Positions 14,257 to 18,814 of a stretch of 64,000 nt of DNA are shown here, in pieces. Origin of the DNA: a candidate division NC10 bacterium CSP1-5 (GTDB lineage: Bacteria; Methylomirabilota; Methylomirabilia; Methylomirabilales; CSP1-5); the NCBI GenBank assembly GCA_001443495.1, contig LDXR01000017.1:2384-66383 (forward strand), written 5' to 3'. A program made the position numbers and the translations under genes. The notes under the pieces are model-generated. The model saw only the letters and a program-made list of their open reading frames with translations, was not told where the DNA came from and searched no databases. How positions within the stretch are numbered: the stretch's first letter is position 1; each line of letters begins with the position of its first letter.

Positions 14257-15029
14257 ATGGTAGCTATGTTGCTCGCGATCGACATCGGCAACACCAACAT
14301 CGTGCTCGGGCTCTTTCGGGAGCGGGAGCTCTTGCACCATTGGCGCGTCGGCACGCGGCGGGACGGCACAGCCGACGAGTACGGGATTCTTCTCAAGAAT
14401 CTCTTCGAGGTGGTGGGGATCCATCCCTCCGCTGTGAGCGGCGTGATCATCGCATCGGTGGTCCCGCCGCTCCAGCCCGTCTTTGAAGAGTTGACCAGCG
14501 CCCACTTCCGTTTGGGTCCGGTCGTGGTGGGACCCGGGATCCGGACCGGGATGCCCATCCTCTACGACAATCCGCGCGAGGTGGGGGCGGACCGCATCGT
14601 GAATGCGGTCGCGGCCTATGAGACGTACGGCGGCCCGGCGATCGTGGTCGATTTTGGCACGGCCACCACGTTCGATGCGATCTCCGCAAAGGGAGAGTAT
14701 CTCGGGGGCGTGATCGCGCCCGGAATCGGGATATCGGCTGAGGCCCTCTTTGAGCGGGCCGCCAAGTTGCCGCGGGTTGAAATCGTGCGCCCCAAAGCGG
14801 TCATTGGGAAGAATACCGTGGGCAGCATGCAGTCGGGCCTGTTCTACGGATATCTCAGTCTCGTGGACGGGATTGTGCGCCGGATGGTCCAGGAGATGGA
14901 GCGGGAACCGGCGGTCATCGGCACGGGCGGCCTGGCCCATCTGATCCTGGCGAGTCCGAGACGGTCCAGCACATTGACGCCTTCCTCACCCTCAAGGGCC
15001 TCCAGATCGTCTACGACCGCAACCGCTAA
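14257..15029 (+). CDS. coaX: type III pantothenate kinase, reading frame interrupted near 14947-14952
   Basis: N-terminus [16 protein letters not shown] and [11 protein letters not shown] are in the frame of ATG 14257. The canonical C-terminus [25 protein letters not shown] sits in another frame (14952-15029). The track ORF instead runs to 15096 with a low-complexity S/P/R/T tail. Confidence 0.8.
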
Positions 15030-15078
15030 CCCTACGCATAGAGAATTAACTGAGCGGCTCCCACTTCCGTCAACGCCG

Positions 15079-15131
15079 GGATATACAGCGGGCTAATATC
15101 TGGATATACTGCCGCCCCAGACGGTATATCC
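15079..15131. repeat. three copies of GGATATAC (two direct, one inverted) at about 22-bp spacing
   Basis: GGATATAC at 15079-15086 and 15102-15109, and GGTATATCC at 15123-15131. They sit immediately upstream of a promoter-like element. Confidence 0.8.
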
Positions 15132-15145
15132 GCGGGACGAGGGGC

Positions 15146-15174
15146 TTGACAAAAGGCCCCAAGTGGCTGATATT
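15146..15174 (+). promoter_or_regulatory. sigma70-like promoter candidate for the islet gene pair
   Basis: TTGACA (15146-15151), a 17-nt spacer, then GATATT (15169-15174). A 5'-UTR hairpin GGGATAG-N10-CTATCCC lies at 15212-15235. Confidence 0.4.
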
Positions 15175-15301
15175 ACGGCTGTTTTCGGTAGGAAGGGATA
15201 CCACCGGGAACGGGATAGACTGCGCAGCCTATCCCGGATGTCAGACGGTTCACTTAATTGTTCGGCGCACCAGCGGTGGCATCAGGAGGCATGAGGGCTA
15301 C

Positions 15302-15928
15302 ATGGGTTGGTTGTCCAGACTCGCTGGGCTTACTGAGCACCTCAAACTTGACGTTCTGATGAAGTTCGACATCGGGAGCGGGCAAGGTGTCGCGGCCCTT
15401 CGCTGGATCGTCACGCGGCCACACGCCTCACTGTCGGATGAACAGAGCAGGATCGCACTCGTCGCATTGCTATACGCGCGAACCTTGGTCAACCACCAAG
15501 AGACCCGTGGTGAGCTGTTCGACCGCATGGCACACGCCGCGCGGCGTGCACTGCAAGGCGATGGCAATCTGACTTTCGAACCGTGGAAGCTCCACGTCGC
15601 AGGCAAGGACTTCTCGATCTGGCCTTGGGTCCTCACGGAGCCGGGGCGGGTCACCGACGCTAGGACCTACACGGCCACGCTCCAGTCAACGTCTGGCGGC
15701 TCGCTGGCAATTCACTTGAAGATGGCGCTCGGACAGGTGCGAATCCTTGCCCCATCCTCAGCGTTGATCGCAGCGTTTGGGCTGGCGAGAGCCCTCAACG
15801 ACACCGACTGCACCCGCTTGGCCGAAGTCCTTCTAGGAATCAACGCGCACTACCGGTCATCTGACAGCATCAGCCTGGGTTCGGAACGAAGCGCACTGGC
15901 AACGGCTATGCCTGCGCTGGTGCGGTAG
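15302..15928 (+). CDS. hypothetical protein (208 aa), no recognisable domain
   Basis: ATG 15302 lies downstream of AGGAGG (15284-15289). Non-repetitive, soluble-looking sequence. It is followed after 8 nt by a membrane-protein gene. Confidence 0.5.
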   Translation: MGWLSRLAGLTEHLKLDVLMKFDIGSGQGVAALRWIVTRPHASLSDEQSRIALVALLYARTLVNHQETRGELFDRMAHAARRALQGDGNLTFEPWKLHVAGKDFSIWPWVLTEPGRVTDARTYTATLQSTSGGSLAIHLKMALGQVRILAPSSALIAAFGLARALNDTDCTRLAEVLLGINAHYRSSDSISLGSERSALATAMPALVR

Positions 15929-15936
15929 GAGGACGG

Positions 15937-16431
15937 ATGACAATCAGCGAACACGAACGCGCGCTCCGCCTGTCGATGGCGCACGACATGGGCCGCGTTT
16001 TCGGGCGAATCACCTTCAGGATAGCGCCCGCGCTACTCCTTGTTTTCGGGTATGGGATCGTCAACCTCGTCAGCCTGGGGACTGCCCCAAGACACTATTG
16101 GCAAACGTACGTCCCGCTCGTCGGTGCTGGTGCCTCGCTCTTGTCCTGCATCTTCTACCCGATGGCAATGTTCTACGGCCGAAGCTGGCTCTCGGCATCG
16201 ATGGCGATCACCGGATTCATCCCATACGTCTTCGCGCTCTTCGTGATGGTCGTTTTCGGCGGCATACGGCTCTACGGCTTGCTCTCTGGATTCTCGATTT
16301 TCGGTCTTCTGGGCGGCCTCTTCTGGCTCATCGTCGGCTACGCCATCCTGTACAACTTCTGGGTCTTCACCGAGGTAGTCGCGAGTGCTGCCAAGGCGCG
16401 AACGCGTGTGCTTGAGTCGCTTGAGAACTGA
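15937..16431 (+). CDS. hypothetical integral membrane protein (164 aa, about 4 TM helices)
   Basis: ATG follows GGAGGACGG. There are four long hydrophobic segments. No homology recognised. Confidence 0.55.
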   Translation: MTISEHERALRLSMAHDMGRVFGRITFRIAPALLLVFGYGIVNLVSLGTAPRHYWQTYVPLVGAGASLLSCIFYPMAMFYGRSWLSASMAITGFIPYVFALFVMVVFGGIRLYGLLSGFSIFGLLGGLFWLIVGYAILYNFWVFTEVVASAAKARTRVLESLEN

Positions 16432-16481
16432 AGCTCGCGCTCGGACTTGAGGGCGGAAAAAGGTGTCAGGAACCTTTTTTA

Positions 16482-16510
16482 TTGACGGGGAGGGTGGGTG
16501 AAGCTAGGCT
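16482..16510 (+). promoter_or_regulatory. promoter candidate for the RAYT gene (would give a near-leaderless mRNA)
   Basis: TTGACG, a 17-nt spacer, then TAGGCT ending 8 nt before ATG 16519. No SD is visible. Confidence 0.3.
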
Positions 16511-16518
16511 AGGGTCCC

Positions 16519-17214
16519 ATGGGACGTCCGTTACGTGCCGCTGTCGGCGGCGTGATCTACCACGTGTTGAACCGGGCGAATGGCGGGCTGCAGCTCTTTG
16601 AGAAAGCCGGGGACTACGGGGCGTTCGAGCGGGTCTTCGAGGAGGCTCACGAGCGGATCCCGATGCGGACCCTAGCGTATTGCCTCATGCCGAATCATTG
16701 GCATCTGGTGCTGTGGCCACGGCGTGACGGCGACCTCTCGCAGTTTCTGGCGTGGGTGACGCTGACGCACACGCAACGCTGGCATGCGCACCGCAAGACG
16801 ACGGGCCAGGGGCATGTGTACCAGGGCCGGTTCAAGGCATTTCCTCTGCAAAGGGATGAGCATTTCCTGGCAGTATGCCGGTATGTGGAGCGGAATCCCT
16901 TGAGGGCGGGGTTCGTAGTGAGAGCCGAAGAGTGGCGGTGGTCAAGCCTGTGGTGGCGGAGGGCTGGCGCCGCTTCGAAGCGGCGCTGGTTGGCCGAGTG
17001 GCCTATTCCACGGCCAGCGCGGTGGGTGAACTGGGTGAACGAGCCGCAGACGGGCACGGAACTTGAAGCACTGCGCCGGTGTGTCACGCGGGGGCAGCCC
17101 TTCGGCTCGGAGGCATGGGTGCGGCGCACGGCGCTCCGCTTGGGCCTCGAAGTGACGTTACGCCCTCGCGGGCGCCCGACAAGGGAGGGTAGGGGGCCAC
17201 GAAAAGGTTCCTGA
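16519..17214 (+). CDS. REP-associated tyrosine transposase (IS200-like Y1 HUH family)
   Basis: HUH motif in LMPNHWHLVLWP and the catalytic Tyr region CRYVERNPLRAG. 231 aa. Confidence 0.85.
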   Translation: MGRPLRAAVGGVIYHVLNRANGGLQLFEKAGDYGAFERVFEEAHERIPMRTLAYCLMPNHWHLVLWPRRDGDLSQFLAWVTLTHTQRWHAHRKTTGQGHVYQGRFKAFPLQRDEHFLAVCRYVERNPLRAGFVVRAEEWRWSSLWWRRAGAASKRRWLAEWPIPRPARWVNWVNEPQTGTELEALRRCVTRGQPFGSEAWVRRTALRLGLEVTLRPRGRPTREGRGPRKGS

Positions 17215-17216
17215 CA

Positions 17217-17280
17217 CCTTTTCCGCCTCCTTTTCCGCCTGCACCTTTTCCGCCCACCTTTTCCGCCCTTTCCGCCTTCC
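17217..17280. repeat. tandem CCTTTTCCGCC array (4 full copies plus 1 degenerate)
   Basis: Copies at 17217-17227, 17229-17239, 17244-17254 and 17257-17267, plus a degenerate copy at 17268-17276. Confidence 0.9.
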
Positions 17281-17398
17281 TGCTGCTGACGTGGGGGACG
17301 CGAGGGGTCCGGACCACTCGCCTGGCAGCTCGCGGTCCGGGTCGGCATCGTGGTCGCGCAGCAGAGCGGCAGATCCGTTCGACTGAGGAAGACGAGAC

Positions 17399-18202
17399 AT
17401 GATCGGAGCCGTTGCCGGAGACATCATTGGATCGGTATATGAGCGCTGCCCGATCAAGACCAAGGACTTCCCGCTTTTTCACCCTGATTGTCACTTCACC
17501 GACGACACAGTGCTGACTCTGGCCATTGCCGATGCCATTCTCACAGGTCGCTCATACTTGCGCTCGGTCCTGGAGATTGGCCGGCGTTATCCCGGCGCCG
17601 GGTATAGCGGCACATTCAGGCGCTGGCTACATTCCGAGAATCCCCAGCCCTACAGCAGTTGGGGAAACGGCGCAGCGATGCGCGTTAGTCCCGTGGGCTT
17701 CGCCTTCTCGACAGATAACGAGGTGCTGCAGCAAGCAGCCGAGACCGCCCGGATCTCACACAGCCACCCAGAAGGCATCAAAGGAGCGGAGGCGACGGCT
17801 CTTGCAGTGTTTCTCGCCCGAACATCCCGCGACAAGCAGCAGATCAGACAAGAGATTACGGATCGGTTCGGATACGACTTGAACCGAACCGTTGAGGACA
17901 TCCGTCCGAAGTACTCTTTTGATGTCTCCTGTCAGGGGACAGTACCCGAGGCCATCATTGCGTTCCTCGATTCCATCTCATACGAGGATGCCGTACGCAA
18001 TGCCATCTCACTTGGCGGCGATAGCGACACCCTAGCCTGCATAACGGGTGGCATTGCGGAAGCATTCTACGGCGGCATACCCCCCGACATCCCAACCCGG
18101 GTGCAGCAGTGCCTCACTCCAGACTTGTGGCGGGTGGTCGAGGAATTCTGCCAGAAGTACGGGACAGAGAAGTCGAACCAAGGAGTGCAGGCGACGCCGT
18201 GA
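17399..18202 (+). CDS. ADP-ribosylglycohydrolase family protein
   Basis: ARH-fold metal-site motifs FTDDTVLTLA and GGDSDTLACITGGIAEAFYG. 267 aa. GAGGAAG RBS. Confidence 0.9.
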   Translation: MIGAVAGDIIGSVYERCPIKTKDFPLFHPDCHFTDDTVLTLAIADAILTGRSYLRSVLEIGRRYPGAGYSGTFRRWLHSENPQPYSSWGNGAAMRVSPVGFAFSTDNEVLQQAAETARISHSHPEGIKGAEATALAVFLARTSRDKQQIRQEITDRFGYDLNRTVEDIRPKYSFDVSCQGTVPEAIIAFLDSISYEDAVRNAISLGGDSDTLACITGGIAEAFYGGIPPDIPTRVQQCLTPDLWRVVEEFCQKYGTEKSNQGVQATP

Positions 18203-18246
18203 CCCGCGCGCCTGACTCTTGTTGGGGGAGGGACGAGGGTCGGACA

Positions 18247-18777
18247 TTGATATTCTTATTTGGACGTGGTGGACCATTAGGGGCGCTGACTGCTCTTGTC
18301 GCTCTGGCGATTCCCGTCATCGGGTTGACAGCGCAGCGGGACGCGAAGTCCTACGAAACGATTAATGAGTTTGCGACTCGGGGCTGGGCTTTCGACTTAG
18401 GAACGTCTCTCACGGATCTCAAGGCGGTTGGAAACGTCCAGCGTGAAGTCGTTTCAACGGTGAAGAACCGGCATGACGAAAACCAAATCGACGAGGTTCG
18501 TGAGCTATATTACGACGGGCTGTACGTCAGGGCGTATTTCCCAGCAAAGGATCACAAGCGCCTCTTCCTTGAGGAGGTTGAGATAACAAGCGCGAGGTTT
18601 CGAGTCAAGCACGGTCTCAACGTGGGCGCCTCAGTCACCGAGCTGCAGCGCGTGCTCGGGCAACCAGACGAAGTCAAGGGGGACGTTTATTCGTATTTCG
18701 GTGAGGCTGATACCGTCCACTTCGTCGTCAGGGGTGGTGTCATTATCAAGGTCAAGTGGGAACTCTATCTTGATTGA
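18247..18777 (+). CDS. hypothetical secreted or membrane-anchored protein (~176 aa)
   Basis: In-frame TTG 18247 follows GAGGG. N-terminal hydrophobic segment LGALTALVALAIPVIGL. The DNA is visibly more AT-rich than its surroundings. The start is uncertain, because the track ORF begins at 18109 inside the ARH gene. Confidence 0.45.
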   Translation: MIFLFGRGGPLGALTALVALAIPVIGLTAQRDAKSYETINEFATRGWAFDLGTSLTDLKAVGNVQREVVSTVKNRHDENQIDEVRELYYDGLYVRAYFPAKDHKRLFLEEVEITSARFRVKHGLNVGASVTELQRVLGQPDEVKGDVYSYFGEADTVHFVVRGGVIIKVKWELYLD

Positions 18778-18786
18778 AGCATTGGG

Positions 18787-18814
18787 TTGACAGAGGAAGA
18801 AATAGTGCTAGAAT
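18787..18814 (+). promoter_or_regulatory. sigma70 promoter candidate for rplM-rpsI
   Basis: TTGACA (18787-18792), a 16-nt spacer, then TAGAAT (18809-18814), 37 nt upstream of the rplM ATG. Confidence 0.6.

Follow-up and report, generated by a model that had tools for sequence, protein, structure and literature searches.

A pair of genes for hypothetical proteins between coaX and rplM of an NC10 bacterium is probably a stranded integron cassette

Two adjacent genes of the NC10 bacterium CSP1-5, here called A and B, lie between coaX and rplM on contig LDXR01000017.1, in a stretch of 64,000 nucleotides that was analysed as a whole (the window). Both products, KRT68714.1 (A) and KRT68715.1 (B), are named hypothetical proteins. 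I found that the segment from position 15260 to about 16448 of the window, which holds both genes, is in all likelihood an integron cassette with two genes, left stranded and probably driven by a host promoter. An original prediction, made from the letters of the window, had seen in the pair orphan genes behind an operator-like array and missed its integron-cassette nature. With the cassette recognised, an apparent orphan operon becomes classifiable, namely as an integron cassette that is stranded and probably co-opted under a host promoter. Integrons are little studied in the phylum NC10/Methylomirabilota. The parts of the cassette are as follows.

15260 to 15266, plus strand: core site GTTCGGC, the R' box, with the crossover point between G and TT; 5' boundary of the A-B cassette.
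15267 to 15301, plus strand: cassette leader with the ribosome-binding site AGGAGG (15284-15289), conserved across contexts.
15302 to 15928, plus strand: gene A (KRT68714.1, 208 amino acids, ATG at 15302), coding for a soluble alpha/beta protein.
15937 to 16431, plus strand: gene B (KRT68715.1, 164 amino acids), coding for a four-helix membrane protein.
16432 to 16448, plus strand: last cassette-homologous bases after the stop codon of B; the spacer and the attC site of locus L062 are missing from here.

About 50 loci were fetched for comparison (loci are labelled L, proteins P). The blastn homology between the window and seven or more independent contexts (L003, L015, L020, L023, L025, L048, and L062-64) always starts at 15260, the first base of GTTCGGC. 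This heptamer starts 42 nt ahead of gene A and looks like an integron core site; in L020, L048, and L062, it also forms the R' box of attC sites. At the other side, the homology ends at 15931-15935 where B is absent and at 16446-16449, about 16 nt past the stop codon of B, where B is present. The A-B unit shows 79-90% DNA identity across many unrelated contexts.

An integron that holds the A-B unit was found in L062/L063. The integrase of L062 scores 462.5 bits against TIGR02249 (integron integrase), for which the cut-off is 265. It is followed by an attI-like end ...GTTAGGC, a first cassette, the attC site GCCTAAC...GTTCGGC, the A-B unit as the second cassette, the attC site CCCGAAC...GTTCGGC, and an Unstab_antitox/ParE cassette. 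When folded, both attC sites of L062 show the single bulged bases that characterise attC, and their bottom strand is more stable than the top strand. In an alignment of 23 attC sites there is a consensus stem in which 12 of 16 pairs have compensatory changes. The covariance model built from this alignment recovers about 22 attC sites outside its training set, all of them co-oriented with gene A, and it gives the attC site of the A-B cassette itself 62 bits in L062/63 and 34.5 bits in L058. Homologues of A with 33-45% identity are found in attC arrays as well, with four sites in L029, five in L035, and three each in L043, L033, and L032. A strict attC scan gave 17 matches against 3-10 in shuffles; a relaxed scan (AAC/GTT ends, one mismatch) was discarded as non-specific, with 67 matches against 63 in shuffled DNA.

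In L057, a 79-residue two-helix protein and a homologue of B are encoded between GTTCGGC and the attC site GCCGAAC...GTTAGAC. Thus, B-family genes are also carried as cassette cargo.

In summary, the A-B unit resembles integron cassettes in the window by its 5' boundary at a core site and its short promoterless leader with a ribosome-binding site, and elsewhere by its presence in many contexts and by the folded attC flanks and the integrase of L062/63. It differs from most cassettes, which carry one gene, in carrying two.

Some further observations were made in the related loci. In L057 (430-1300), the leader GTTCGGCGCA is nearly as in the window, the gene for the 79-residue two-helix membrane protein takes the place of A, and this gene overlaps the B homologue (40% identity) by 4 nt. 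In L003 (490-1065) and L015 (7001-7813), a gene with an FRG domain is the cassette directly upstream of A, with an attC site between them (29 bits), and both loci also carry integrase, HTH_17, primase-helicase, and TIR_2 genes. In class 1 integrons, the integrase gene is divergent from the cassettes; in L062 (3500-4567), the integron integrase and the cassettes are transcribed in one direction.

What remains of an integron around the window copy lies downstream of gene B. The islet between coaX and rplM is read as a short array of cassettes in decay. The A-B cassette would be its first member, and its other parts are as follows.

16452 to 17227, plus strand: IS200-like element with a Y1 transposase gene at 16519-17214 (Pfam Y1_Tnp).
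17280 to 17383, plus strand: candidate remnant of the attC site of the A-B cassette, with an L''-like CTGCTGCTGACG and an L'-R' stretch CAGCAGAGCGGCAGATCC-GTTCGAC; R'' is missing.
17399 to 18202, plus strand: ADP-ribosylglycohydrolase gene (Pfam PF03747, E 2.6e-36), cargo of a second cassette.
18172 to 18227, plus strand: attC site of the second cassette, GTCGAAC...GTTGGGG, a full-length match of covariance model R1 that overlaps the stop codon of the ADP-ribosylglycohydrolase gene.

The IS200-like element lies directly 3' of gene B, at the expected position of attC, and parts B from the attC remnant. Perfect 21-nt inverted repeats, AAAAGGTGTCAGGAACCTTTT, at 16458-16478 and 17202-17222 flank the Y1 transposase gene; each of them is itself a small hairpin, and the stop codon of the transposase lies inside the right one. 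With its Y1_Tnp domain and inverted hairpin-forming repeats, the element is like the IS200/IS605 and REP-associated (repetitive extragenic palindromic) Y1 transposases. By its insertion, it would have cut the A-B cassette from its attC site, so that the cassette would no longer be excisable and its genes would be fixed in place. The locus thus illustrates the decay of a cassette array by an IS200-like insertion.

The second cassette is opened by the core site GTTCGAC (17377-17383), 16 nt before the start of the ADP-ribosylglycohydrolase gene. The attC site at 18172-18227 scores 26.7 bits (E 2.6e-4 over the whole window) and is the sole significant one in the window. Its R'' box GTCGAAC at 18172 is the exact complement of the GTTCGAC at 17377. 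Since this is the relation expected of the two ends of one cassette, the ADP-ribosylglycohydrolase gene represents a second cassette. A cassette with an attC site whose R'' box is complementary to its first bases is also what likens the window to integrase-less arrays (CALIN/SALIN). However, a CALIN is defined by at least two attC sites and no integrase, and the window has one significant attC site and a second candidate below the threshold.

Integron cassettes normally lack promoters. Because the A-B cassette likewise has none of its own, it would be read from the resident promoter candidate at 15146-15174, which is described below. There is a precedent among integrase-less single cassettes, in that cassettes may insert at places other than att sites and that resident promoters have been described to express such isolated cassettes (10.1101/2022.09.11.507474).

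Several points weigh against the reading as a cassette. The window copy has no intact attC site of its own, having lost it to the IS200-like insertion, and the homology stops about 16 nt past B. The attC remnant candidate at 17280-17383 reaches only 6 bits, which is a weak score. The core site GTTCGGC deviates from the consensus GTTRRRY, as its fourth base is C and not R. A search of the 64-kb window with an IntI1 sequence as the probe revealed no integron integrase. The pairing of A and B is not obligatory either: most A genes are single-gene cassettes, B is found without A in L054 and L056, and in L057 it has the different, 79-residue partner. Lastly, the lineages in which A and B are joined in frame (P0039/L062-65 and L025) may be pseudogenes, as judged from frameshifts that are described below.

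A few minor observations concern the decayed array. Tandem CCTTTTCCGCC-like repeats stand at 17210-17277, just after the IS200-like element. A strain variant of the locus, L010, lacks about 150 bp corresponding to 17229-17381 of the window, and the deletion ends 1-2 nt from the GTTCGAC core site. A Y1_Tnp fragment lies just upstream of A-B in L014, and in L045 an open reading frame (ORF) about 0.9 kb downstream of A appears to have a Y1-transposase-like N-terminus. Do such IS200-like elements target attC hairpins? The question is raised by this analysis. Directly after the attC site of the second cassette comes the ORF 18247-18777 (176 amino acids in the strain variant L006), whose N-terminus is hydrophobic and which may represent a third cassette. 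No attC site was found between this ORF and rplM. A near-consensus promoter, TTGACA-16-TAGAAT, was read by eye at 18787-18814, directly upstream of rplM-rpsI.

The two genes proved to be no orphans, contrary to the original prediction. There are 36 close relatives of A in a database clustered at 90% identity, a profile search raised 171 cluster representatives at 50% identity, and B has about 22 relatives. A search of representative genomes gave only one locus, and tblastn found no match of A in plasmid and phage records. The module idea of the original prediction was supported in that the two genes recur together in accessory DNA. At least five independent contexts (the window, L014, L058-60, L061, and L062-65) have A and B side by side on one strand, with an overlap of 4 nt in L061. 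In L026 the two genes are also neighbours but converge, and their products share 59% (A) and 39% (B) identity with those of the window. P0049 is a B-A fusion in which an intact A domain follows the B domain. A survey of co-occurrence thus supports a recurrent pair and not an obligatory one, as A and B are each also found alone. In L018, L037, and L042, only the first few codons of B, up to 18, remain after A, which points to a loss of B.

The in-frame A-B lineages are not counted as strong evidence of linkage, since P0039/L062-65 and L025 each have a different frameshift in A, at codons 142-146. The indels lie at L062:5950-5990 and L025:3040-3060; one is a 10-nt duplication and the other a 4-nt deletion. 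In both lineages, the stop codon between A and B is lost as well. The indels could reflect parallel decay or an unusual split arrangement.

Many A relatives among the cluster representatives have unrelated transmembrane segments fused at one end or the other. A few have other partners: P0178 has a response-regulator receiver and a zinc ribbon, P0086 has Sel1 repeats, and P0145 and P0177 have zinc ribbons with transmembrane segments. In 20 long fusion proteins, Pfam revealed REC, zinc-ribbon, and Sel1 domains only, and the extensions were otherwise uninformative.

As had been noted from the letters, the genes of the window form a tight pair of 208 and 164 codons with a gap of 8 nt, and an AGGAGG overlaps the stop codon of A. 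The AlphaFold model of A (pLDDT 92, pTM 0.90) is built from beta-hairpins and helical hairpins. Among the invariant residues of A are L57, Y58, R60, W107-P108-W109, Y123, and N181; they are mostly aromatic or hydrophobic, including the LLYARTL and WPW motifs, and there is no obvious catalytic set among them. An internal duplication in A was considered and rejected, as hhalign of the two halves gave a probability of 0.2%. The expectation of a four-helix membrane protein for B agrees with its AlphaFold model, which has four long helices (pLDDT 88). B has a conserved motif GF(I/L)PY. Since basic residues cluster at both ends of B, both termini are predicted to be cytoplasmic.

That neither protein belongs to a recognisable family was borne out. 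A and B have no match in Pfam, NCBIfam, PADLOC (E up to 1), or PHROGs, A has no match in the PDB by sequence, and Foldseek against the PDB and BFVD gave nothing significant; a structure search with B returned generic helical-bundle matches only. Homology supports no function for either protein. A is a new domain family that is covered by no profile library.

What might the pair do? A would act at the membrane as a cytoplasmic domain for binding or sensing; it has no obvious catalytic residues. It would be docked on B, whose ends are both predicted to be cytoplasmic, or, in its relatives, be tethered by other transmembrane segments. It is possible, if doubtful, that A-B plays a part in conflict, as a small phage-defence or immunity module with A for sensing or binding and B as the part that would act in the membrane. 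This guess is made because the cassettes of chromosomal integrons are rich in such systems and because defence-type genes are neighbours of A and A-B. The original prediction had likened the architecture to stress, abortive-infection, or immunity modules. HEPN_AbiU2 (L061), ParE-type toxin-antitoxin (L062), and TIR_2 and FRG genes (L015 and L003) were found in these loci. Many cassettes of chromosomal integrons encode anti-phage systems (10.1101/2024.07.02.601686). As a compact cassette of one or two genes with defence-type neighbours, A-B is similar to the anti-phage cassettes of sedentary chromosomal integrons in that study; unlike them, it has no PADLOC match, and the association is by neighbourhood only. 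The wider proposal, that A and B constitute a previously undescribed membrane-acting conflict system spread as cassettes among uncultured soil and aquifer bacteria, seems rather unlikely. If it were true, a new modular effector architecture would be marked by A having been joined to different membrane anchors repeatedly and independently. The A family combines 171 clusters and a confident model with no Foldseek match in the PDB; it travels as cassettes and is repeatedly joined to membrane domains. The family makes a reasonable choice for a functional screen, given how many anti-phage systems are carried by the cassettes of chromosomal integrons.

Alternatively, the pair may serve not in conflict but as a small module for signal transduction at the membrane, with A as its signalling or sensing domain. 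This idea fits the fusions of A found in P0178 (receiver domain and zinc ribbon), P0086 (Sel1 repeats), and P0145 and P0177 (zinc ribbons together with transmembrane segments). However, such fusions are few among the 171 cluster representatives, most members of the family are stand-alone cassette genes, and no output domain or partner kinase is linked to A in the examined loci; I consider the idea unlikely.

Toxin-antitoxin cassettes are common in chromosomal integrons. Thus, it may be asked whether A-B is a toxin-antitoxin or toxin-immunity pair that stabilises the cassette array, with B as a membrane-damaging toxin and A as its neutraliser. The unit is small and tight (the gap of 8 nt, or the 4-nt overlap in L061), and a ParE-type toxin-antitoxin cassette adjoins A-B in L062. 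Nevertheless, A is often a single-gene cassette without B, and B is also found alone. Toxins and their antidotes are not usually fused in the way that A is to B (P0049) and to unrelated transmembrane anchors. In Pfam, NCBIfam, and PADLOC, there is no toxin-antitoxin family that matches either protein, and the pair does not have the characters of a Type II system. Such a role is therefore quite improbable.

The DNA between coaX and the cassette has the following features.

15027 to 15029, plus strand: stop codon of coaX, from the alignment with L006, whose gene is annotated as Pan_kinase in Pfam.
15079 to 15131, no strand assigned: three copies of GGATATAC, two direct and one inverted; locus-specific, outside the cassette, with no homologue in other loci.
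15146 to 15174, plus strand: sigma-70-like promoter candidate TTGACA-17-GATATT, 86 nt upstream of the cassette boundary.
15211 to 15236, no strand assigned: 26-nt palindrome CGGGATAGACTGC/GCAGCCTATCCCG of 13+13 nt, 92% complementary.

The window has exactly three copies of GGATATAC, at 15079-15086 and 15102-15109 on the plus strand and at 15124-15131 on the minus strand, against 0.44 expected; three copies anywhere were reached in one of 100 shuffles. All are inside 53 nt, with start-to-start spacings of 23 and 22 nt, and the copies at 15102 and 15124 form an 8-bp inverted repeat with a spacer of 14 nt. The two direct copies and the inverted one thus exist as first described, with the last of them starting at 15124 and not at 15123. 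The promoter candidate is also present as described; it matches at 10 of 12 positions, and the region holds two such sites against 0.5 expected. What had been taken for a hairpin of the 5' untranslated region at 15212-15235 is a palindrome that spans 15211-15236, and it may be either an operator-like site or such a hairpin. No Rfam match for the 5' untranslated region was found at E up to 1. A GGATAKRC motif has its fourth and fifth copies in the arms of the palindrome, CGGGATAGACTGC and, as the reverse complement, CGGGATAGGCTGC.

The idea that array, promoter, and hairpin belong to the module does not hold, since 15260 is where the homology to all other copies sets in. From coaX to the cassette, the 230 nt before this position have no match in any other fetched A or A-B locus. 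In the window, neither a regex-plus-fold scan nor the covariance model found an attC or attI site directly upstream of 15260, and no regulator gene adjoins A-B. The GGATAKRC sites would not have travelled with the genes and may be operators for a host regulator. As far as can be judged from the comparison of the loci, the array may control the window copy as a local feature, and not as the module's own regulator.

What, then, are the five GGATAKRC sites? They could form an operator array on which a regulator acts, or else belong to a small mobile element as its ends and subterminal repeats. As for an operator array, repeats at a promoter are present, and conservation along with the genes is absent save for two short words in L025. 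In this A-B locus (L025:2536-2583), GATATACAG and GATAGACAG lie within 90 nt upstream of A and echo the motif of the window. The region that carries them is otherwise unrelated to the upstream DNA of the window, and the match may be due to chance. As for REP or other dispersed repeats, all exact copies and five of the seven degenerate GGATAKRC matches in the 64 kb are confined to one stretch of 156 bp, where they bracket the promoter candidate. It was also considered whether GGATATAC is the REP sequence of the neighbouring Y1 transposase. This was rejected: that gene has its own, unrelated 21-nt inverted repeats, and the IS200-like element is merely the neighbour that disrupted the cassette.

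The segment 15076-15237 might be a non-autonomous element like a miniature inverted-repeat transposable element (MITE), with CCGGGATATACAGCG/CGCAGCCTATCCCGG as terminal inverted repeats, subterminal repeats, and a promoter that it carries by chance. There is in fact an inverted repeat of 15 nt (15076-15090 and 15223-15237, 80% complementary, 132 nt apart), and internal copies of the same motif lie between its arms. On the other hand, there is no second copy in the 64-kb window or in any fetched locus, and no target-site duplication was identified; an element of this type is improbable. Many dispersed copies of CGGGATAKRCWGC in the genome would favour a MITE or REP sequence, while a few copies at promoters would favour a regulon.

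Very unlikely, lastly, is an ordinary chromosomal two-gene operon with the GGATATAC/GGATAKRC array as the operator of a dedicated repressor or activator that co-evolved with the genes: the five related sites do bracket a good sigma-70-like promoter and L025 does have its GATATACAG and GATAGACAG upstream of A, but the 230 nt upstream of 15260 are without a homologue in other loci although the genes share 79-90% DNA identity, A-B has no regulator gene next to it, the break coincides exactly with the integron core site, and the L025 match of two short words could be accidental. As a general model, the operon is refuted by the homology boundary at 15260.

Apart from the cassette itself, one detail of the upstream gene deserves mention. 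The alignment with the strain variant L006 places the actual end of coaX, which codes for type III pantothenate kinase, at the TAA of 15027-15029. Compared with L006, one nucleotide near 14952 is missing from the 3' end of coaX in the window. This 1-nt deletion may be either an assembly error or a real frameshift. It artificially extends the ORF to 15096 (window 14950-15096), and because of this deletion the upstream ORF runs over the first copy of GGATATAC.

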